In this document: one piece after another, positions 26,386-36,580 of the stretch | Position numbering within the stretch: the stretch's first letter is position 1 | Layout: each line of letters starts with the position of its first letter | IMG/VR virus record: IMGVR_UViG_2861079508_000001 | Direction: 5' to 3' (one strand) | Length of the DNA: 64,000 nucleotides | Origin: a virus | Taxonomy: Duplodnaviria; Heunggongvirae; Uroviricota; Caudoviricetes | Made by a program: the position numbers and the translations under genes | The notes under the pieces: generated by a model | The model's database searches: none | The model's input: the letters and a program-made list of their open reading frames with translations, nothing else | Told to the model about the DNA's origin: nothing

Positions 26386-27083
26386 TACATACGCTCCTTG
26401 TAGTAGTCGACCAGCCACACCAGAGCCTCACCAGCGTTCTCCATTTCATTACCGGTGTTAATAGCCTGCTCTTTGATGATGTTTTTTATGGTTTCTGCAA
26501 CACGATCTGACGCATCGAAAGTTACTTTGAAGCGCATGGTCTGATGTTCCGCACCCACACGTTCGGTTTTCTCTCGTTTGTCGGTATCGACAGGCTCATC
26601 ACTACCACGAGACAACGCCTCCAGTGCTTCAAGGTCGATTGCCGCCTCTTTTGCTAAAACCATCGAGATTTCGTCGTCATACGGGGCGATTTCAGACAGT
26701 TGATAGTCAAGTTCTGACTGAATTTCTTCAATGAAGCGTTGCAATGCGATTTGGTCGTCTTCACCGTATCGCTCGTTGTCCACCAGTGACATCTGTTTAG
26801 CTACGACATCGCTAATTTTGCCCACAGAAAGCACCGGAACCGTTGAAATTCCTTGCTCAATAGCAGCACGCCAGCGATGTTCGCCGCCGAGGATTTCAAA
26901 AAATCCATCTTCAAGTTCACGAGCCAAAATTGGCTTAAAAAAGCCCAATTTTTCGATAGAACCTTTCAGTTTTTCAAAATTCTGCGCACCAACCGAATTG
27001 GTGTTCCAGGTATTCGGGCGAAGGTTGGCAACATCAACCTGCAAAATCGTGATTTTTACATCCATTTTATTGCTACAATACAC
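26385..27083 (-). CDS. ParB-like N-terminal domain protein 2
   Basis: ParB/Srx motif LGGEHRWRAA. Confidence 0.6.
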   Translation of the reverse strand: MYCSNKMDVKITILQVDVANLRPNTWNTNSVGAQNFEKLKGSIEKLGFFKPILARELEDGFFEILGGEHRWRAAIEQGISTVPVLSVGKISDVVAKQMSLVDNERYGEDDQIALQRFIEEIQSELDYQLSEIAPYDDEISMVLAKEAAIDLEALEALSRGSDEPVDTDKREKTERVGAEHQTMRFKVTFDASDRVAETIKNIIKEQAINTGNEMENAGEALVWLVDYYKERM

Positions 27084-27087
27084 TAAG

Positions 27088-27112
27088 TAACCACTTACTT
27101 ATTATAATAGCC
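27088..27112. promoter_or_regulatory. palindromic motif TAAGTA-N-TACTTA in divergent promoter region
   Basis: CTAAGTAACCACTTACTTATTATAAT between ParB-like gene and helicase gene. Confidence 0.4.
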
Positions 27113-27147
27113 AAATAACATACAAAAGGCACTAAGGAAAGAGGTTT

Positions 27148-28707
27148 ATGACTGTTCGGATTGTATCTAACGCAGTAAATGCGCTTATTTCTGGCGCAGA
27201 TGACAAGGTAAAGCAACTGGTGCAGCAAATGTTGAGCTACGAAGTCGAGACTGGCGACTGGAAGGGCACAAGCACGATGTTCAACTGGAGTAAAAACTCG
27301 TTCCCTGCTGGCTTTGCCAAGCCTGTAGCGGCGAACTTGAACAAGGCGGGCATCAAATGTGTTCATATCCGCAAAGACAAAGCCCCGGCGCTTGGTAAAC
27401 CAAATCCGGCGGTTAACCCATTCCCATACAATCCTGATTATGCGTATCAGGATCAGACTGTGGAAACACTGGTTCGAGAGGGAATGATGATTGCGCAGAT
27501 CGCTACTGGTGGCGGGAAATCTAACGTTGCCTGCAAAGCAGCTGCACGTATCGGTCGAATGACATTATTTTTAACAACCCGCTCTGTTCTGATGTTTCAA
27601 ATGGCCGAAAACTTCCAGAGATCCATCGACTACCGCGCCGAAAATGGCGAACCGTGGTTAAAAGACCAAAAGGTTGGAGTCATTGGCTCGGGTGAGTTCC
27701 AGGTATCACGACATATCAACGTCGCTACAGTTCAAACTCTTGCAAGTTTCCTCGAAGAACCACCACGCGATGCAACACCAGATAAGAAAAGCTACCACCT
27801 CAAACGTCGGGAGTTGGTGAAACGCTTCCTTTCAAGTGTCTCTCTTCTTATTCTGGAAGAGGCGCATGAGTCTTCAGGCTCAAATTTCTATGACATCGCC
27901 AGATTATGTGTGAACGCAGACTATCGTCTGGCGCTTACAGCCACGCCGTTCATGAAGGATTCGACGGAAGCCAACATGCGCCTGATGGCGGTGGCCGGGC
28001 GAATTGAAATTAAAGTCACAGAAAAGTACCTGATTGATCGAGGCATTCTGGCAAAGCCGTACTTCCTTTATCATAAAGTTGCCTACAAGCCAGACGAGGC
28101 CAGAATCAAGGCCGAACTTGCCAACAAACACCTCAATTTTAGAGTTGGTATGAGCACCGCCTACCAAAAGGCTTATCAGTTGGGGATCGTGTATAATTTG
28201 GGACGTAACGAGGCCATTGTTCGCGAAGCATTGCTCTATAAGCAACATTCTCTCAATTGTATGACTCTGGTTCGTCTTAAACGCCACGGGCAAATCCTGA
28301 TGGAAATGATGAAAGAGTCCGGCCTTAGAGTTGACTTCATCTATGGGGAATCTAACCAGGCGACAAGGCAAGCAAAGCTGAACAGTTTAGCGTCTGGAGA
28401 AATAGATGTTTTAATAGGCTCGACTATTCTGGATGTCGGTGTTGATGTGCCAAGCGTTGGTGCGGTCATTCTTGCTGGTGGTGGGAAAGCAGAAGTTGAA
28501 ATGAGGCAGCGTGTCGGTCGTGGCTTACGAGCCAAAAAAAATCAGGCAAACGTGTGTTTTATCACTGATTTCATTGACATTAGCAACAAATACCTGTTGT
28601 CTCACTCTTATGAGCGAAAACACATCATCGACACCACACCTGGCTTTGCAGAAGGTGTATTGCCTATTGATGGAGCATTCGATTTTGGAGTTCTGAAACG
28701 AGATTAG
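27148..28707 (+). CDS. SF2 DEAH-box helicase
   Basis: Walker A TGGGKS, DEAH-like LEEAHE, motif III LTATP, motif VI QRVGRGLR. Confidence 0.75.
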   Translation: MTVRIVSNAVNALISGADDKVKQLVQQMLSYEVETGDWKGTSTMFNWSKNSFPAGFAKPVAANLNKAGIKCVHIRKDKAPALGKPNPAVNPFPYNPDYAYQDQTVETLVREGMMIAQIATGGGKSNVACKAAARIGRMTLFLTTRSVLMFQMAENFQRSIDYRAENGEPWLKDQKVGVIGSGEFQVSRHINVATVQTLASFLEEPPRDATPDKKSYHLKRRELVKRFLSSVSLLILEEAHESSGSNFYDIARLCVNADYRLALTATPFMKDSTEANMRLMAVAGRIEIKVTEKYLIDRGILAKPYFLYHKVAYKPDEARIKAELANKHLNFRVGMSTAYQKAYQLGIVYNLGRNEAIVREALLYKQHSLNCMTLVRLKRHGQILMEMMKESGLRVDFIYGESNQATRQAKLNSLASGEIDVLIGSTILDVGVDVPSVGAVILAGGGKAEVEMRQRVGRGLRAKKNQANVCFITDFIDISNKYLLSHSYERKHIIDTTPGFAEGVLPIDGAFDFGVLKRD

Positions 28708-28709
28708 TT

Positions 28710-28988
28710 ATGAGCGAAAAGAAAACAACTTATTGTCAGGTAGCATTGTCTGATAAGGCCAATGACAAACTTGGAAAGTTTCAAGTGAAACTAAAAGAAA
28801 AAAATATCAAAATGTCTAAGGCTGAAGTCATAAATACCATTCTGGAACAATTGACAATGGCCGACTTTGACAAGGTTATATCTTCTGTCGGGGCTTCCGC
28901 TAAGACTCGTGAGAAAATCATGCGTATCTATGAGAACTCTAATATGACAAAGGAAGATCTCGAAACGCTATTAAGCAGATTAAAATAA
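28710..28988 (+). CDS. hypothetical protein
   Basis: 92 aa ORF, translationally coupled to helicase. Confidence 0.4.
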   Translation: MSEKKTTYCQVALSDKANDKLGKFQVKLKEKNIKMSKAEVINTILEQLTMADFDKVISSVGASAKTREKIMRIYENSNMTKEDLETLLSRLK

Positions 28989-29014
28989 TCACGCTATCAA
29001 TTAGGGAGACAAAG

Positions 29015-29479
29015 ATGAAGTCTCCCATACTGTTCACTTTCTGTTCTAAAACTATCATGAAATACTCGCTTCTCCCTCTACTAACGTTACCAGTGTTGAT
29101 GCTTACCGCGTGCCAATCACGCCCAATATCAATCCATGACGCCAAACCAGCACCGCAGGCCAAAGTGTTCAAGTATCAAAGCGCAGCGCCAGCTACGTTG
29201 GTGGTAATGAGAGACACAGGTTTTGTAGGAGCTGGATGTGATGCTTCCATTTTCATCAACGGCGAAACTGTCGCAAAACTGGCTACAGGCGAAAAAGCGA
29301 CTTTCCATTTAAATGCCGGAGAATTAATTGTGGGTGCATCTCTTGAAGGTGCAGGTTTATGTGCTCTAAACCCCGCTCGTCAAGAGCGAGAAACGACTCT
29401 GAAGAATGGAGACACAAAAGCGTTCAGGGTGTTCACCAGCAATTCTGGTGACATCGACATTCTGCCAACAACTCTGTGA
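29015..29479 (+). CDS. lipoprotein (candidate superinfection exclusion protein)
   Basis: Signal peptide with lipobox LTAC; start may be internal Met (MKYSLL). Confidence 0.5.
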   Translation: MKSPILFTFCSKTIMKYSLLPLLTLPVLMLTACQSRPISIHDAKPAPQAKVFKYQSAAPATLVVMRDTGFVGAGCDASIFINGETVAKLATGEKATFHLNAGELIVGASLEGAGLCALNPARQERETTLKNGDTKAFRVFTSNSGDIDILPTTL

Positions 29480-29483
29480 TGAC

Positions 29484-30008
29484 ATGACAACCAAAGATAT
29501 TACCTACGGTATCCAAGCTGAACTCTGGCCGCGAGATTACACTAACGTTGAAAAACTACTGATGTTCTGGCGCAGAGAACAAATTCCTGTAAGGGTCACT
29601 CTCGAAGATGGCCAGGCGTTTTGCATGTACGTTTATGGCCTCATGCCATCTCGTAACAAAGTTGACCTTTGCCCAGCCCCTTTTGACAAAGAAAATCGTA
29701 TAAGGCTCCCACTTGAACGCATTAGTACAATTGAATCAGGTGTGGTTGACAGTATCGCTCACGATTTCAAAGGTCGACTAACAGTTCACCCTGATTATGT
29801 CGATAATCGGCCATCACGCCGCGATTTTTTTGCAATTTGCAACCAAGCCTACAAAGCAAACAAATCTATAAGGGTGTACATGGCGGATGGCCGTGAAATT
29901 GAGGGGGTGTCAGCAGGCGCAGATGCTTGTCAGGTTACACTACGTGTCGAGAACGGTAGAAAAATAGTTGTTTTGTTCGATTGGGTTGAACGAATTTTGC
30001 CTTTTTGA
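29484..30008 (+). CDS. hypothetical protein
   Basis: ORF 29406-30008 trimmed to first non-overlapping ATG (MTTKDITYG). Confidence 0.4.
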   Translation: MTTKDITYGIQAELWPRDYTNVEKLLMFWRREQIPVRVTLEDGQAFCMYVYGLMPSRNKVDLCPAPFDKENRIRLPLERISTIESGVVDSIAHDFKGRLTVHPDYVDNRPSRRDFFAICNQAYKANKSIRVYMADGREIEGVSAGADACQVTLRVENGRKIVVLFDWVERILPF

Positions 30009-30011
30009 GTT

Positions 30012-30320
30012 ATGAAATCGATATTGTTACCACCATTATTTTTACTTTGCTCAGTTACGGCAAATGCAATGGACTATAAGCCTGTCATTCAGTCGCTGAT
30101 GAATGACGTGTGCTCAACGTCTCAGAATGTATCAGTTTGCATGTATCAATTTTCGGCAGCCGTAAAAGCAGGAAAAGCGATAGGTGAGAATGTGGAACTG
30201 TGTAAGAAAGTGGCAAATGAAGAAAGGGCAATGTTGGATTGCGAATCTAGCGAGTCATCGGCACAGTTCGTTGATGCGCTATTTGACACCAATCGTAAGG
30301 CTGTAGAGTCTGTTCAATAA
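30012..30320 (+). CDS. secreted Cys-containing small protein
   Basis: N-terminal signal peptide ending ANA; 6 Cys. Confidence 0.45.
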   Translation: MKSILLPPLFLLCSVTANAMDYKPVIQSLMNDVCSTSQNVSVCMYQFSAAVKAGKAIGENVELCKKVANEERAMLDCESSESSAQFVDALFDTNRKAVESVQ

Positions 30321-30333
30321 ATCTATAAGGTTA

Positions 30334-30362
30334 ATAACCGGCTAAGTCCGGTTATTATTTTT
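30334..30362 (+). terminator. intrinsic terminator
   Basis: Hairpin ATAACCGG-CTAAGT-CCGGTTAT followed by T-run. Confidence 0.6.
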
Positions 30363-30509
30363 CACATCACTTCTTTATATCTACAAATCAAATAACCTAA
30401 ATATATATAAGGTCTAAAGCCGCAATCGATTATTTATTTAGGGAACACCTTCGACGATCTCGCTTTTATTTCTAGGACTTTCATCCCTGCAAAAAATTTT
30501 AAAAAACAC

Positions 30510-30538
30510 TTGCAATCTATTTTCGCGTATCGATAATT
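30510..30538 (+). promoter_or_regulatory. sigma70-like promoter (TTGCAA - 17 bp - GATAAT)
   Basis: Hexamers and spacing read from sequence, about 65 bp upstream of the 30603 ORF. Confidence 0.5.
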
Positions 30539-30602
30539 GAGCTCGTCGAAAGCGAAGACGCTAACGACAATAAATTTTAAATTTACATAAGGAAAAATTA
30601 TC

Positions 30603-31253
30603 ATGGCTAACATTATCATTTCTAAAAAATCCATCATTGAAGCTGCTTCCATTGTATCCGATGAACTGCGCGAAAAAGCAGATCTGGCAACTCAAACATA
30701 TAACGAACATTATAAAAATGGTACGCACACTAAAGCAGACAAAGCAAATATGCAAGCTGCGACCACTAAACTTGCTTACTTCATCAACAACGTCGTAAAC
30801 GCAGTAGAAGACGAAAAATTATGCTCTGTTTTCTACTATGCGATTAAAGCAAGCAAACAAGCGCCAGAAGTATTTTTCCGTGATGCAATGACTAATAGTT
30901 ATTCTCTGGAAAAACTGGTTTATCTGGTTAAATCAATTAAATCTGGTAAATGCGTTTATTCCATCGCTGATATGTCAGGATCTCGTGTATTCGCTTTAAT
31001 CGATATGATTAACGACGAGATCGACACGTTCACCAATGGCGCTGTTTTCGATTTAATGAATGAAGCTAAAAAAGCGTGCGAAATTAAATTGGACGCTGGC
31101 TATACTCAAGCCAACCAGTTGATCAATCTTTGCGAACGTCTTGGACTTGTTGAGAAAGTCAAAGGAATGGGAAGCGCAAAAGCTGGTACACAGCAATATC
31201 GCTTTATCAAGAATGATTTCTACAATTATTTAGCTGATGCTTTTAAAGCGTAA
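30603..31253 (+). CDS. hypothetical protein, AT-rich codon usage
   Basis: 216 aa ORF with RBS; composition differs from flanking phage genes. Confidence 0.5.
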   Translation: MANIIISKKSIIEAASIVSDELREKADLATQTYNEHYKNGTHTKADKANMQAATTKLAYFINNVVNAVEDEKLCSVFYYAIKASKQAPEVFFRDAMTNSYSLEKLVYLVKSIKSGKCVYSIADMSGSRVFALIDMINDEIDTFTNGAVFDLMNEAKKACEIKLDAGYTQANQLINLCERLGLVEKVKGMGSAKAGTQQYRFIKNDFYNYLADAFKA

Positions 31254-31265
31254 TTAATGGAATCA

Positions 31266-31283
31266 AGCGCCCACTATGGGCGC
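31266..31283 (+). terminator. hairpin AGCGCCCACTATGGGCGCT (copy 1, weak T-run)
   Basis: Inverted repeat; identical hairpin recurs at 31764-31782. Confidence 0.35.
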
Positions 31284-31303
31284 TTTAAAGGAGCTTTAAA
31301 AAA

Positions 31304-31507
31304 ATGGTCAGCTATGACAAGATCCGCGCAAAGTATCGCGCAAAGTATCGCGCTTATAAACTGGAATTAATCGATGATTTGATCGCGCAACGCGACCAAT
31401 TAAATTTTACGTTTTCTGATTTGCTTAACAGCAAGCGAGATTGCAAGCGCAAACGTGAATACTTACGTTTAAGCGCATTAATCGGAAAACTTCAAAATTC
31501 TATTTAA
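31304..31507 (+). CDS. hypothetical small protein (low-complexity N-terminus)
   Basis: 67 aa ORF containing a 12-bp tandem repeat. Confidence 0.3.
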   Translation: MVSYDKIRAKYRAKYRAYKLELIDDLIAQRDQLNFTFSDLLNSKRDCKRKREYLRLSALIGKLQNSI

Positions 31508-31528
31508 TTTTTTTTAAGGAGCTTAATC

Positions 31529-31759
31529 ATGTTTGTTCTTATCGCTGGCGTTAACGTCCATAATGAATATTATGTTAATCGCATCGCTGGGATCGCTGGT
31601 TACGCTGGGCGCGCAGTCGAGCTTATAGATGAAACGACGCGCAAAATTGACTTATTGAGCGACCAGGAGCGAAAAAAAGCAGACGTGAACGACGCTGATA
31701 TATTTTTAATGTTAAAAGCGTTTGTAGAAATGGGATTTAAAATCAGTTTACACAAATAA
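31529..31759 (+). CDS. hypothetical small protein
   Basis: 76 aa ORF with RBS AAGGAG. Confidence 0.35.
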   Translation: MFVLIAGVNVHNEYYVNRIAGIAGYAGRAVELIDETTRKIDLLSDQERKKADVNDADIFLMLKAFVEMGFKISLHK

Positions 31760-31763
31760 AATC

Positions 31764-31789
31764 GAGCGCCCACTATGGGCGCTTTTTTT
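31764..31789 (+). terminator. intrinsic terminator (hairpin AGCGCCCACTATGGGCGCT plus T7 run)
   Basis: hairpin followed by TTTTTTT. Confidence 0.65.
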
Positions 31790-31810
31790 CGTTTCCAATA
31801 CACCTACCAT

Positions 31811-31838
31811 AACGCGCCATCATTGGCGCGTTTTTATT
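31811..31838 (+). terminator. intrinsic terminator (AACGCGCCA-TCAT-TGGCGCGTT plus T-run)
   Basis: hairpin and T-run read from sequence. Confidence 0.55.
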
Positions 31839-32244
31839 GTCTTTAACTCACTCCAACAACATAAAAATAAGCGCCAAAATAACGCCATAGACGCGCTTTT
31901 ATATCCTTACCAGTACATGCCCATTACTTAACACATTAACGCGCTTAAAACGCATTATATTGCGCTATAGAGTATGGTTAATCATTGGCTTTTAGTCTTG
32001 CTATGTGATCCGCGTTTATTTGTCGGTGCGGATCGGCATTTTGTTTTGTTCTGTATCCGCTCGCGTATTATGTGCGCGTAATTTTTCACATAATCACACC
32101 ACTTAATCACGTATGTGATTATGCTACGAAAGAAATCTGGATGTCTCAGGCGACGAAAGTCATCATAATTTCCCCCGCTCACCTGTCCGACAACCGCTGG
32201 TTGGATTCCACCAGCTTCCCGATGTTTTTTCTACACAAAGGCGA

Positions 32245-32340
32245 ATGCAGCCGTTTCCCGAAAAAATCCTGGCCGTTCCCCGTCGGCTCATGAATACGTT
32301 CCTCGCCGTTTCTGAAAATTTCCCTGCGGCAGCTGGTGGC
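32245..32340. repeat. array of GCCGTTTCC(C/T)GAAAA-like repeats ending at a Chi octamer
   Basis: Three degenerate copies plus GCTGGTGG at about 32332-32339; related array at 35380-35520. Confidence 0.5.
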
Positions 32341-32375
32341 TATAGAGAAAGGGCCGTTTCTGGCCCTCTTCTCAG

Positions 32376-32858
32376 TTACACGCCATCAAGGATGTGGATG
32401 CGGTTGCTTGCGTATACATTCAGCATAAAGTTAGCGCAAAACAGTTTCCATGTATCAACGCCAGCGGTATACGTAATGTTTTTGCATTTAATTGCATTGT
32501 TGGCGATCCGCATCCCCTGCGATACTGCTTCATCGTCGGAAAATTTGAACGACGATTGAGTTTTAATCCAGACAGAAATCTGCGTAGCGAACTCAATCAG
32601 CTTGGACTGGCAGAATCGCCCGGAGCGCACCGGAAGGACGAACGTTCCGAATCCAGAATTTACCACATATGCTTTCTCAAATACCCGCGAGTAACGACGA
32701 TTGCCAATGATGTCGCGTGCAATAATGCATTTTTCTTGTGCTGACAGTTCTACCGTCTCATTGTCGCGCCATGCACCAAGTACTCGTTTTTCAATGTCAG
32801 AGAACGTTACAGCGATATTGCCATGTGCGGGTGCGTTTACAGTAGCGATAAAATTCAT
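32376..32858 (-). CDS. hypothetical protein
   Basis: 160 aa ORF preceded by promoter and motif. Confidence 0.5.
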   Translation of the reverse strand: MNFIATVNAPAHGNIAVTFSDIEKRVLGAWRDNETVELSAQEKCIIARDIIGNRRYSRVFEKAYVVNSGFGTFVLPVRSGRFCQSKLIEFATQISVWIKTQSSFKFSDDEAVSQGMRIANNAIKCKNITYTAGVDTWKLFCANFMLNVYASNRIHILDGV

Positions 32859-32876
32859 GATTAATTCCTTATCGTA

Positions 32877-32933
32877 AATAACAAATTGTTTTCTTGTTGG
32901 TGTTAATTATCGTTGTACGAATAAGGCGTCAAA
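32877..32933 (-). promoter_or_regulatory. sigma70-like promoter (TTGACG - 16 bp - GATAAT) with downstream AACAA-N-TTGTT motif
   Basis: Hexamers on minus strand; palindrome between -10 and RBS. Confidence 0.5.
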
Positions 32934-33208
32934 GTGGAAAGTTGCGGTAGCCGGACGGGAACAGGTGGGTTTGTCGGTTGCCTGGAGGTAAGAGGTTGGT
33001 GTTATTAGCCTGAGGGAAACAGGATGGTCATTTAAGACCACCAATGCTGGTGGCCTTAATAATTATCGCCCGATTACGCTAAGGATCTTTTCCTCAACTG
33101 ATTTGTTGTTGCGACTAAACTGCCTTGCGTATCTGATGACAGAAGAGGCGTTTTGCTTTCTGACCATCTCGGCTCTTTCCTTCAGGCGTTTCTTGAAATC
33201 GCCCATAT

Positions 33209-33625
33209 TTACCACCAGGCGCAGAAGGTCAGTCTGTTATTGTGAAAGTCGTGGTTCTTAATCAGATCTTCCACAAGCTCTTTCAACTGCCCCACATCAT
33301 GCCAGTAACCTTCGTCGTACTCCTGACTGCCGAAGAAAAAACCTTCCCGAGTAGGCAAGTACTCTTCGCAATTGCTTTCGTTTATGTGCATCAAATGAGC
33401 TTTCAGAAGACAAATGTCATTCATCGTTAATTCTAAAAGCTCACAATTTTCGACTTCACCTACGTTGCGCTCCATCCACCCAACGAGCGCATTGAACTTA
33501 CGGAAGTAAGCAACCTGCTTTCTGGATGCCTCGTTATTCAGATCGTTTTTAGGCTGTGTCTCGATATAGATATCAAGTCCCATGATGGTTTCCTTATTAA
33601 CTTGCTTCAGTAAAATCATTTTCAC
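33209..33625 (-). CDS. hypothetical protein
   Basis: 138 aa ORF; likely true start a few codons inside. Confidence 0.45.
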   Translation of the reverse strand: MKMILLKQVNKETIMGLDIYIETQPKNDLNNEASRKQVAYFRKFNALVGWMERNVGEVENCELLELTMNDICLLKAHLMHINESNCEEYLPTREGFFFGSQEYDEGYWHDVGQLKELVEDLIKNHDFHNNRLTFCAWW

Positions 33626-33666
33626 AAATCAGATAAGGCAGAAAACAAATTGTTATCTGGCTTAAT

Positions 33667-33692
33667 AAAATGGCGCGGTTTACGCGCCATTT
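33667..33692. terminator. intrinsic terminator hairpin (AATGGCGCG-GTTTA-CGCGCCATT)
   Basis: Hairpin flanked by A/T runs, immediately after a TAA at about 33701. Confidence 0.5.
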
Positions 33693-33856
33693 AAAGAGGA
33701 TTAAGCGAATACGCTTTCAGGGATTAAGGTGTCGGCAGGAATGCCAGAGGTAATGCGCAGGCCGTACTGACCAATCCAGGTAGTGTTGGTATTCAGGCTG
33801 GAGGCGAATACGGTGTTAACCATATTCATCATGGTTTCAAACACCTCTTCATCAAC

Positions 33857-34096
33857 CTAGCGGAAGTAGTTCTCGATTTTCAGCAGCAGCGGGTCAGTTG
33901 CATCGAGAATGGACTGGTATTGAGTCGCGTACTCGCCGCCGGAGGCATCACCTTTACGCACGATCGTACTGGCCTGGACTTCGGCACCAGTTTCGGTGTT
34001 GTACGTAACAACGGTAATTTTTGCCACATTCTTACCTTCGGCGGTTTCAGAGGCATAGTAAACATCAACTGTCAGTTTTTCGCGTTTAACGGTCAT
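33857..34096 (-). CDS. hypothetical protein, apparently truncated (79 aa) by a premature TAG
   Basis: ORF ends at TAG; protein-like reading frame continues about 49 codons to a TAA at about 33701 followed by a terminator. Confidence 0.45.
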   Translation of the reverse strand: MTVKREKLTVDVYYASETAEGKNVAKITVVTYNTETGAEVQASTIVRKGDASGGEYATQYQSILDATDPLLLKIENYFR

Positions 34097-34221
34097 TTCA
34101 CTCTCCGTAGTGTATTGGTTATTTTTATATTCTATAATCGTAAGTATTTACTTACAATACAAAAAGCCCCGTAAGGATGGCGGGGCTGTCGTACTGTCGA
34201 CTAATTGCCACTTGCACATTA

Positions 34222-34533
34222 TCAGGCTATTGCCATCACTGATGCTCTCTGAATTTCTTGCTGGGCCACGCGGTTAACTTCCATCAAGGCCAGTTCGAGC
34301 TGATGTTCCGGCCACATTCTTTGAAACGCCATCCAGCCTTTTCCACGCTGGCGACGAACATTCATTACATAACGAGTAAAGGTGTTTTTATCGAAAGACA
34401 CCGCTGTTTCACGGAACAGACGAATAGAGGTTCCATTGGCAACGATGTCCAGCAAAGTTAATTGAGCAACCAGCGCAGGCTTCTCTTTTCTCTTCTGGTC
34501 TTTGTCCAGACCAAGAACCAATGATTTTTTCAT
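34222..34533 (-). CDS. hypothetical protein
   Basis: Start at MKKSLVLG with RBS GGAG; motif AAACAACTTGTTTTCT immediately upstream. Confidence 0.5.
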   Translation of the reverse strand: MKKSLVLGLDKDQKRKEKPALVAQLTLLDIVANGTSIRLFRETAVSFDKNTFTRYVMNVRRQRGKGWMAFQRMWPEHQLELALMEVNRVAQQEIQRASVMAIA

Positions 34534-34544
34534 CACAACTCCGT

Positions 34545-34560
34545 AAACAACTTGTTTTCT
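34545..34560. promoter_or_regulatory. palindromic motif AAACAACTTGTTTTCT
   Basis: between -10-like TATTAT and RBS of downstream gene. Confidence 0.45.
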
Positions 34561-34687
34561 CAATGGCGTAAATAATACCAATAAGAAAACGGCTACAAAG
34601 CATAATGATCAGGTGCATGAGCGATATGCAGGTTCTTCCCTGCGGCTACAGATTAAGTTAAGCCAGCAATGCTGGCTTTGGTTGGGA

Positions 34688-35017
34688 TTACGCGAATACC
34701 TCAAGAAACTCCTGAACGTCCCAATGCTGGACGAGGTGAAGATAGACCTTAGAAATCACGTCATTTTCGCTATCGCATGTGAAGTAGTACTTCTGGCTGC
34801 GGTTGTATGTGTCCACACAAAATTCGCTCATATCCATAAAGTCAGCATCATCACCCAGGTCGCTAATCATCAAAGCAGGTGCATCATCACGAGTCATCAG
34901 CTCCAGCACCCATCTTGAATTAATCAGAGTGGAAGACCAACCTTCCAGCTCATAAAACTGGTCAAACTCTTTTTGAGTCAATTTCTTAATTTGGTTGATG
35001 TCGATATTTGCAAACAT
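34688..35017 (-). CDS. hypothetical acidic protein
   Basis: Start at MFANIDINQ with RBS AAGGA. Confidence 0.5.
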   Translation of the reverse strand: MFANIDINQIKKLTQKEFDQFYELEGWSSTLINSRWVLELMTRDDAPALMISDLGDDADFMDMSEFCVDTYNRSQKYYFTCDSENDVISKVYLHLVQHWDVQEFLEVFA

Positions 35018-35379: not shown

Positions 35380-35520
35380 CGCCGTTCCTGAACCGGCATC
35401 GAGCCTTTTCCCGAAATCCACACAGGCAACTCGACCGTTTCCCTGAAAACCTCCAGCCGTTCCCCGAAGGCAACCCAGCCGTTTCTGTAGCGGGATGCAA
35501 CCTTTTCCCTGTATGGACCG
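35380..35520. repeat. array of about 6 degenerate (G)CCGTTTCCC(T)GAA-like repeats
   Basis: Units at about 22-bp spacing read from sequence; Chi octamer at about 35179-35186 nearby. Confidence 0.5.
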
Positions 35521-35619: not shown

Positions 35620-36580
35620 TGGCTTCTTCGCTATACATGTTGTGTTTTATCTGTCTCAACCTCTCTATAGGCGTTAATGCTCACTCCTTCCAGAATGTTC
35701 TATACGGCAACTATTTCTGTTGGTGAATTGGGTGTGTTGTTCTCTCTGTCGGTGTATGTGGTTTCGTTCGTTTTGCGGTGGTTCTTCTATGGGGTGTTCT
35801 CGTCGTTTTGGTGATTGTTCTTCTCCGTGTATGGAGTAATGGCAGGTGGGCGATTCCTTTCGTTGTTGTGTTTGAGTTGTTTGTCTGGAGTGTGTGAAAG
35901 GCTTTTGCAGTTATTCGTGTATTGGGTAATGGCATTTCCCGTGATTGTTGTGTTTCGTGTCTTTTGGGATTGAGAGAAACCTTGCGGTTACAGGCTTCGT
36001 TGGGGTTTCAGTGATTCTGGTGTTCTTCGCTGTTTGGGGAATGGCGTGTCGTGGGTATCGCGCGTATGAATGTTTTCGGATTGCCTGTGAAAGTTAGGTT
36101 GGTTGTCCGGTAGCCTGGGGAGAAGAGGTGGGTCTTTTCGGTAGCCTGCCATAAAGAGGTTGGTTGTTTTTGGAAATGGCATTTGTGTTATTTAGTTGTT
36201 TTGTTATGCCTGAAAATAAGTTGTTTATATGGTTGTGTAACGCAACGGGAGCGATTTTGAGCGTGTGTTTTTGTTGGTAGTGTGTTGGGTCGTCTGTGGT
36301 GAAAATTGGACGCTGTGGCGCTGTCTGCTGCGTAGAGTTACGGGTATAAGCAGTGATGTGTGAAAACGTCAATTTTTTAGACCAAATCGGGTGAAAGCGT
36401 TGATGTTTCGTTGATCTGTTATTCAGTTGTTTTCTTGATTGTATAAACAACTATAACTTATTGATATTTAAGGATGTGATTGCGGGTATGGAAGAAGAGT
36501 AGTGGCGATCAACGGATTCTTATAGAAAAGAATCAAATTGTGACCGCCATTATCAACTGATTGATTTGTTTACTTGTGTA
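35620..36580. repeat. ORF-free GT-rich, C-depleted region with degenerate repeats
   Basis: No ORF of 60 aa or more on plus strand; strong G+T skew; repeated GGNAATGGC and GGTAGCCTG...AGAGGTNGGT units. Confidence 0.6.

Follow-up and report, generated by a model that had tools for sequence, protein, structure and literature searches.

We analysed a three-gene cassette on the plus strand of a 64,000-nucleotide stretch of viral DNA (IMG/VR record IMGVR_UViG_2861079508_000001, Caudoviricetes), which is called the window here and which DNA matches of the region identify as an SSU5/pHCM2-like phage-plasmid. The three open reading frames (ORFs), ORF1, ORF2 and ORF3, are all present as an earlier note on this DNA had listed them, and none of their proteins has an assigned function, as that note also held. 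The same note took the cassette for a horizontally acquired moron. Our results point instead to an autonomous backbone operon of these phage-plasmids, silent in the one lysogen with data, in which a putative regulator gene is followed by a leaky hairpin, an exchangeable slot for small genes and tandem terminators; we hold this reading with slightly better than even confidence. The features on which the argument draws are the following.

29406-30008: FljA-like regulator, PF03614 ('repressor of phase-1 flagellin'), E 2.5e-84, with a weak Hfq-like match
30332-30357, with T-run to 30362, plus strand: intrinsic terminator of the upstream operon (helicase to FljA-like gene to orf102), 10-bp stem and T-run, free energy (dG) -12.6
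30399-30413, no strand: upstream box AAATATATATAAGGT, also AAATATATAAGG (TATATAAGG motif, usually twice per locus), invariant core in alignment A2
30430-30454, no strand: upstream block TTATTTATTTAGGGAACACCTTCGA, also TTTATTTAGGGAACACCTTCGA (inverted repeat AGG-N5-CCT), near-invariant in 10 lineages to ~33% ORF1 identity
30464-30483, no strand: upstream block TTTTATTTCTAGGACTTTCA, also TTTCTAGGACTTTCA (core TCTAAGACTTTGA), in all lineages including L135 (~30% identity), unique in the window
A/T tract from 30491 and promoter 30510-30537, plus strand: UP-element-like tract and sigma70-type promoter TTGCAA-16-GATAAT, 9/12 match, start inferred
30544-30567, plus strand: block CGTCGAAAGCGAAGACGCTAACGA of the 5' untranslated region (5'-UTR), in alignments A2 and A6, found in most of the SSU5 clade and weak in the deepest lineages
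30603-31253, plus strand: ORF1, 216 amino acids
31266-31284, plus strand: hairpin 1, AGCGCCCA-CTA-TGGGCGCT, 13 nt past the ORF1 stop, dG -15.5, then only TTT
31304-31507, plus strand: ORF2, 67 amino acids
31529-31759, plus strand: ORF3, 76 amino acids
31765-31790, plus strand: hairpin 2 (stem identical to hairpin 1) and T7, a strong intrinsic terminator and the right boundary of the slot
31811-31832, with T-run to 31837, plus strand: hairpin 3, a variant, AACGCGCCA-TCAT-TGGCGCGTT and T-run, dG -15.7

The position of ORF1 points to a backbone gene. A homologue search over 5.8 billion proteins found 102 homologues at 53-97% identity, and those with long contigs lie mostly on ~105-112 kb elements from Enterobacterales. 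When 1.84 billion representatives were searched exhaustively with a profile, only a few members of greater distance were added (23 representatives in total), all from the same narrow family. Genomic context was fetched for members at 74, 70, 63, 62, 53, ~40, ~35, ~33 and ~30% identity, and almost every contig long enough showed the same order, that is, two ParB-like genes and a helicase gene, then ORF1, then convergent small genes. This synteny held in at least 14 loci, from 97% to ~30% identity. Among the plasmids of PLSDB, ORF1 occurs in 814, ORF2 in 516 and the ORF3 family in 373. The ratio of nonsynonymous to synonymous substitution rates (dN/dS) of ORF1 is 0.06-0.12, which indicates strong purifying selection, and synonymous sites are saturated between lineages (dS 0.9-2.4). 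Judged by these comparisons, ORF1 is a conserved backbone gene of SSU5/pHCM2-type phage-plasmids and no recent acquisition. It is found without small ORFs in L117, L019, L041, L112, L116, L134 and L141; because it stands alone in several lineages, it would be more than a regulator of small ORFs.

Two variants of this arrangement were seen. In L010 (3400-4700), where ORF1 is 63% identical, its unit has kept its place but runs in the opposite direction with respect to the helicase gene and the 160-aa gene found 3' of the cassette; it lacks a small ORF, and its hairpin is one base shorter (GAGCGCCA-GAAA-TGGCGCTC). The Yersinia pestis pMT1-type plasmids (hits H22, H38, H39) carry ORF1 (86% identity) and a divergent ORF3-like gene (51%), but no ORF2; to our knowledge, phage production is not known for this plasmid lineage.

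The base composition of ORF1 is atypical, yet this is no evidence of recent transfer. Its GC content of 0.378 is the lowest among the 60 window genes of at least 100 aa (mean 0.472, standard deviation 0.034), and its GC at third codon positions (GC3) is 0.350 (2nd percentile). ORF2 and ORF3 have a GC content of 0.387 and 0.403, respectively, with an unremarkable GC3 (18th-22nd percentile), so that the low GC described earlier for the cassette holds for all three genes. The ORF1 homologues have a GC content of 0.38-0.42 in all lineages, whatever the local GC (0.42-0.54), and low GC is therefore an old property of the gene and not a mark of recent transfer.

Expression of the unit could be read from a study of strain LF82, which reports per-gene values for phage Cyrano (PMC9928086, S1 table). 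CYRAN_113 is the ORF1 homologue (97% identity) and CYRAN_112 the ORF3 homologue. In overnight lysogeny broth, the normalised counts were 5.9 for CYRAN_113 and 5.0, which is the floor, for CYRAN_112; terminase and capsid genes gave 7-8, the putative repressor 96 and the FljA-like gene just upstream 18 (PMC9928086). The two genes fell below the moron cut-off of that study and are not among its morons (PMC9928086). After 6 h in macrophages, CYRAN_113 reached ~40-46 fragments per kilobase per million (FPKM, converted from log2(FPKM+5)) and rose with the capsid gene, and CYRAN_112 stood at ~0.46 of the CYRAN_113 level. In this one relative, the unit thus appears to be off in the plasmid state and on with the lytic genes.

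These results bear directly on the proposal of an acquired moron for superinfection exclusion, defence or anti-defence, for instance an Acr-Aca-like unit in which ORF1 regulates small effectors, which we now regard as improbable. Such an origin would account for the cassette's own promoter and terminators, for the lowest GC in the window and the ORFan proteins, and for the variable small ORFs with their divergent alleles and repeat-length polymorphism; a conserved helix-turn-helix (HTH)-type gene beside variable small genes also resembles acr-aca loci. However, ORF1 is a syntenic core gene down to ~30% identity and stands alone in several lineages, its GC is ancestral, the operon is silent in the Cyrano lysogen, and no homologues of ORF2 and ORF3 were found outside SSU5-like elements. 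PADLOC matched no defence model to the three cassette proteins at E up to 0.1, and we found no support for an exclusion, defence or anti-defence role. A moron is expected to be absent from the same position in close relatives, and here only ORF2 and ORF3 vary, which have no promoter of their own; it is also expected to be expressed from a repressed prophage, which the Cyrano homologues are not. The part of the cassette that does vary among related elements is ORF2/ORF3.

The backbone operon that we favour has its own transcription unit, as the earlier note had supposed, with a conserved promoter at 30510-30537, a terminator upstream (30332-30362) and two downstream (31765-31790 and 31811-31837). 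Alignment showed that the upstream terminator is conserved in SSU5-clade relatives. The promoter had been called near-consensus, which is generous, as promoter matches this good number 12 here as compared to 10.7 expected in shuffled sequence. On the other hand, the TTG of the -35 and the ATAAT of the -10 element are invariant in 11 lineages, and the upstream A-tract is kept while the surroundings have diverged. It is this phylogenetic conservation, not the match score, that makes the promoter credible.

Further upstream, three blocks are conserved to ~33% ORF1 identity, deeper than most of the ORF1 protein, and the box at 30399-30413 is kept in the deep lineages L134, L139 and L141. A structured RNA leader was considered and rejected, since RNAalifold gave -0.75 kcal/mol with no structure or covariation; the absence of RNA covariation indicates that conservation acts on the DNA sequence of the blocks and suggests that they are sites for protein binding. 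A genome-wide regulon motif was likewise rejected, because neither the window nor the 100 kb of PhiR41_1 contains extra copies, and the blocks are therefore private to the ORF1 promoter. The conservation of promoter and blocks suggests tight regulation. The blocks might be bound by the FljA-like regulator, by the prophage repressor, by ORF1 itself or by a host factor. Because the FljA-like gene is expressed in the Cyrano lysogen while ORF1 is off, it may regulate the ORF1 promoter or 5'-UTR. Of the SSU5-clade loci examined, nearly all have a gene of this type just 5' of the cassette; for a 171-aa protein of L134, the comparison with FljA reached only E 0.44.

ORF1 had no family in Pfam or NCBIfam (E up to 0.1), its profile had no match among PDB sequences, and PHROGs places it in phrog_1513, of unknown function. 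Its AlphaFold model (predicted local distance difference test, pLDDT, 78.8) has two parts. Residues 8-114 form a long N-terminal helical hairpin and more helices, and residues 127-213 a winged helix of canonical H1-S1-H2-H3-S2-wing-S3 topology. A BFVD structure search returned winged-helix domain matches only, with E above 0.009. The remote homology and structure check proposed in the earlier note thus gave a winged-helix fold for ORF1 and no sequence family. The putative recognition helix, Y167-T-Q-x-N-Q-L, is invariant in alignment A1 (54-87% identity), as are the basic and glycine residues of the wing. Based on the model, ORF1 is most likely a sequence-specific DNA-binding regulator and probably represents a new family of putative DNA-binding proteins.

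The window contains exactly two copies of the hairpin AGCGCCCACTATGGGCGCT (31266-31284 and 31765-31783), where 0.01 copies are expected by chance, and both lie within a 31-nt direct repeat. Two identical hairpins had indeed been noticed before, although the second starts at 31765, one position later than given, and the pair brackets ORF2 and ORF3 and not all three genes. Hairpins 2 and 3 have the form of intrinsic terminators, with 8-9-bp stems, dG -15.7 and T at 7/8 and 6/8 positions; hairpin 1 has the stem and only TTT. It always lies 9-13 nt past the ORF1 stop, with the ribosome-binding site of the next gene immediately 3' of it, and the T-tract after it differs by lineage; the window version of hairpin 1 is TTTAAAGG and that of SSU5 TATTTTTAAGG. 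We infer that hairpin 1, which forms the left boundary of the slot, acts as a leaky terminator or attenuator, and this leakiness fits the approximately two-fold drop to CYRAN_112 in the Cyrano RNA-seq data. A further hairpin is located ~46 nt past the last one, in the consensus form in L008, L009 and L013 and as a variant (GCGCCA...TGGCGC) in the window; this hairpin 3 would be a back-up terminator.

The stem GCGCCCA/TGGGCGC is exact in ~27 copies from 13 loci that were retrieved independently of the hairpin, and the loop varies (CTA, TAG, CAA, ATA, CAG) and is often inverted. Over 9 independent lineages, variable positions numbered 0/14 in the stem, 25/25 upstream and 18/25 downstream. In the deepest lineages, ORF1 is followed by a stable but sequence-unrelated hairpin, with energies of -10.6 to -16 kcal/mol:

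L134, hairpin after ORF1: ACGCGCC..GGCGCGT
L135, hairpin after ORF1: AGATCCGCA..TGCGGATCT
L139, hairpin after ORF1: AAAGCCCACT..AGTGGGCTTT
L141, hairpin after ORF1: AAATCCGCT..AGCGGATTT

Because a hairpin stands at the gene end with an unrelated sequence in these lineages, it is conserved as a structure, i.e., as a terminator. In relatives (L001, L006, L008 and others) the loop changes between CTA and its reverse complement TAG, even between the two copies of one genome, which suggests inversion of the whole hairpin or template switching at the palindrome. The form (A)AGCGCCCA-NNN-TGGGCGCTTT with a T-rich tail ends unrelated genes in two other phage groups of IMG/VR contigs (L016, L021, L064, L074 and L110; L029, L034 and L084). 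The idea that the hairpin is private to SSU5 elements was therefore rejected, and in these phages it seems to be a type of terminator that recurs. A public scan with an N3 loop returned mostly chance singletons in GC-rich contigs. In L140 (2323-2345), the remotest ORF1 homologue (P0122, 249 aa) has, 8 nt past its stop, a hairpin in which the two 8-mers have changed places (TGTGGGCGCT-cac-AGCGCCCACA); this hairpin has no T-run and precedes an unrelated 76-aa ORF.

The same conservation could mean that the GCGCCCA-N3-TGGGCGC palindromes are primarily binding sites for a protein (ORF1, ParB-like or other), as operators, roadblocks or centromere-like sites, and terminators secondarily, a possibility to which we give little credence. 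None of the 14 stem positions varies in 9 lineages despite dS above 0.9 and diverged flanks, the central 3 nt are free to vary, as the spacer of an operator would be, and no palindrome was found elsewhere in the window or in the 100 kb of PhiR41_1, so that it is confined to the locus in a 100-kb genome. The recognition helix of ORF1 is also invariant within the clade, and L140 keeps both 8-mers, swapped, without a T-run. However, the palindromes are always at gene ends, the terminal copies have T-runs after them, unrelated genes of other phage groups also end in this hairpin, and recombination between elements could also homogenise the sequence. Binding of ORF1 to the hairpin palindrome is further weakened by L134, L135, L139 and L141, which keep a similar or nearly identical recognition helix with unrelated hairpins.

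For the operon with a slot that we prefer, a catalogue of 42 loci shows the variability of the slot. The slot holds nothing, an ORF2-type gene only, an ORF3-type gene only, both, or two ORF3-type genes. It is empty in L117, L019, L041, L112 and L116, and L120 has two ORF3-type genes with one hairpin per gene. L117 is a clean deletion that joins the left flank of hairpin 1 to the right flank of hairpin 2, which is the outcome expected if the two hairpins recombine, and the ORF3-only layout matches a deletion between two TTAAGGAGCTT ribosome-binding repeats. The hairpins and the TTAAGGAGCTT repeats may thus be the recombination substrates for gain and loss of the small genes.

ORF2 is a basic protein (isoelectric point, pI, 9.9; grand average of hydropathy, GRAVY, -0.66) with no hydrophobic segment, and is likely helical, to judge from its sequence. 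Its dN/dS of 0.04-0.06 at long range shows strong purifying selection. Homologues lie directly 3' of ORF1 down to 31% identity, and ORF2 is the usual partner of ORF1. It belongs to phrog_6145, and its counterpart in SSU5 is SSU5_119. In SSU5, in some plasmid records and in PHROGs it bears the label 'MIT family metal ion transporter CorA'; this is a propagated mis-annotation, because a 67-aa basic protein without a hydrophobic segment is concerned. Assignment to DUF6899 was rejected, as the match is weak (E 0.01-0.03, short of the family cut-off) and is seen again only in close relatives. ORF3 has a predicted ferredoxin/ACT-like b-a-b-b-a-b fold, and its matches to ISG65-75 and acetolactate synthase were rejected as noise or generic ACT-like similarity. 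The short tandem repeats noticed earlier in both genes are real, namely a 12-nt unit repeated 2.4 times at 31325-31353 in ORF2, and a 9-nt unit repeated three times at 31583-31609 in ORF3, the latter read from the sequence and not reported by Tandem Repeats Finder (TRF). Both differ in copy number among natural homologues and always in frame; (IAG)1-4 in ORF3 homologues gives proteins of 70, 73, 76 or 79 aa, and the RAxY unit in ORF2 homologues gives proteins of 63 or 67 aa. Phase-variation switches were rejected, because units of 9 and 12 nt always keep the reading frame.

Taken together, the proposed working of the operon would be as follows. The terminator at 30332-30362 would insulate the unit from the upstream operon, the sigma70-type promoter with its A-tract would drive ORF1, and the three upstream blocks would probably serve as repressor or activator sites. 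After induction or infection, ORF1 would act as a sequence-specific DNA-binding regulator. Hairpin 1, with its strong stem and poor U-tract, would let a fraction of the polymerases through into the slot, and transcription would end at the strong terminators, hairpins 2 and 3. The identical hairpins and the TTAAGGAGCTT repeats would recombine, so that small genes are gained and lost. A bolder and rather unlikely version makes ORF1 the switch protein of SSU5/pHCM2/pMT1-type phage-plasmids, which would be kept off via the upstream blocks, perhaps by the FljA-like regulator, and would then bind the palindromes and/or the iteron-like arrays described below and launch lytic development or replication; the slot would be a landing pad that exchanges ORF2/ORF3-like modulators.

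Several points weigh against the operon as we read it. The winged-helix domain of ORF1 has a net acidic composition (pI 5.3), and many domains of this fold serve in contacts between proteins. A search for ORF1 target sites elsewhere in the genome, which covered the window and the 100 kb of PhiR41_1, found none, and the promoter matches the consensus at only 9/12 positions. The ~27 hairpin copies include no G-U or compensatory stem variant, which exceeds the need of a structural terminator, and this invariance within the SSU5 clade hints at an extra sequence-specific constraint. The expression data come from one relative in one study, and Cyrano has no ORF2.

The gene neighbourhood is common to all the relatives. 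The DNA identity of the region is 97.6% to Escherichia phage CMS-2020a, 94% to PhiR41_1, 91% to Cyrano, and ~81-85% to SSU5 and several Klebsiella phage-plasmids. One strand carries the two ParB-like genes and an ABC-type ATPase gene, and the opposite strand carries, in order, a UvsW-like helicase gene (27148-28707), a 92-aa gene, a lipoprotein gene, the FljA-like regulator and the cassette. A convergent operon of small genes, of which the first encodes 160 aa (32376-32858, minus strand), lies 3' of the cassette. Between the FljA-like gene and the terminator sits a 102-aa ORF (30012-30320) with a hydrophobic, signal-peptide-like N-terminus, which is present in only some relatives and is flanked by the repeat AAATCTATAAGG at 29862 and 30318. 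A minus-strand promoter-like site (31981->31954, TTAACC-16-TATAAT, 10/12) is aimed at hairpins 3 and 2; it might give a transcript of ~190 nt, and the two hairpins could also terminate the minus strand. As a conserved antisense or small-RNA promoter this site was rejected, because it is kept only in the closest relatives. Rfam (E up to 1) gave no known RNA family in 27000-35000. At 35700-36320, a non-coding tract of ~600 bp has an extreme strand asymmetry, with a G+T-rich plus strand, GC skew up to +0.52 and AT skew down to -0.56, and no tandem array was detected in it.

Two clusters of iteron-like direct repeats, (c)AGCCGTTTCCCgAAAA, at 32251-32361 and 35382-35486 (CCGTTTCCCG arrays), have 4 copies each, with a 22-bp phasing of 3 copies in the second cluster. 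Across lineages, the intergenic alignment shows no change in the motif, which has many copies in the distant locus L134 and variant forms in L141 and L135, and the clusters might serve as an origin, a centromere or an operator array. That ORF1 is an origin- or partition-type DNA-binding protein acting on the CCGTTTCCCG arrays, for example a lytic-replication initiator or adaptor beside the helicase and ParB-like genes, is very unlikely, as its fold matches the generic winged helix, its N-terminal half is all-helical and has no second winged helix of the iteron-binding Rep type, neither a Rep_3 signature nor any other family was found among Pfam matches, the repeats stay with the 160-aa gene where the ORF1 unit is inverted in L010, and they could belong to the convergent operon.

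The SSU5/pHCM2-like phage-plasmids occur widely in clinical Klebsiella, E. coli, Enterobacter and Salmonella, are related to Yersinia pestis pMT1 and carry resistance genes. The locus offers a handle on the choice between plasmid maintenance and lytic growth in these elements. If ORF1 is merely another regulator, the interest would be routine.

Several known systems resemble the locus in part. The moron concept, a unit of promoter, gene and terminator, is said to go back to Juhala and Hendrix in 2000. The term has been used for temperate phages (PMC9928086, PMC7067206). The cassette is like morons in its own promoter and terminator, its atypical composition and the unknown function, and unlike them in that ORF1 is syntenic and universal in the group, the unit stays silent in a close relative's lysogen, and the composition is ancestral. 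In acr-aca operons, a conserved HTH-type gene and variable small ORFans share one promoter and are expected to be on early and off in lysogeny. The cassette likewise links a conserved HTH-type gene to variable small ORFans under one promoter; however, the regulator comes first, and ORF1 is far larger and lacks the small genes in several lineages. The known Aca and Acr families in the libraries used showed no similarity to the cassette proteins. ORF1 shares the winged-helix fold with factors such as ArsR/SmtB, MarR, PadR and TubR without membership of any Pfam or NCBIfam family, and differs from them in a novel helical N-terminal domain of ~120 aa and in a winged-helix domain that is acidic overall with no evident metal or ligand site.

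Intercistronic stem-loops inside operons, of the REP or malE-malF type, are expected to adjust how strongly the genes before and after them are expressed relative to each other. Hairpin 1 resembles them in its strong intercistronic stem and weak U-tract; unlike them, it has the sequence of the terminal terminator of the operon and is invariant across species. In the PeSL (promoter-early stem-loop) cassettes of T4-type phages, near-identical stem-loop terminators are repeated around small non-essential ORFans, and the insertions, deletions and replacements seen in relatives map to these repeats, which implies recombination (PMC2839356, PMC4122927). The slot described here also has repeated, conserved stem-loops around variable ORFs, with insertions and deletions at the stem-loops (42 loci; L117 and L120). 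In contrast to PeSL cassettes, it has no plus-strand promoter-like site beside hairpin 1 or 2 and rides on the promoter of the conserved upstream gene, and its 2-3 repeat copies lie at one locus only and are not spread over hyperplastic regions. The PeSL cassette is the closest known counterpart of the slot.

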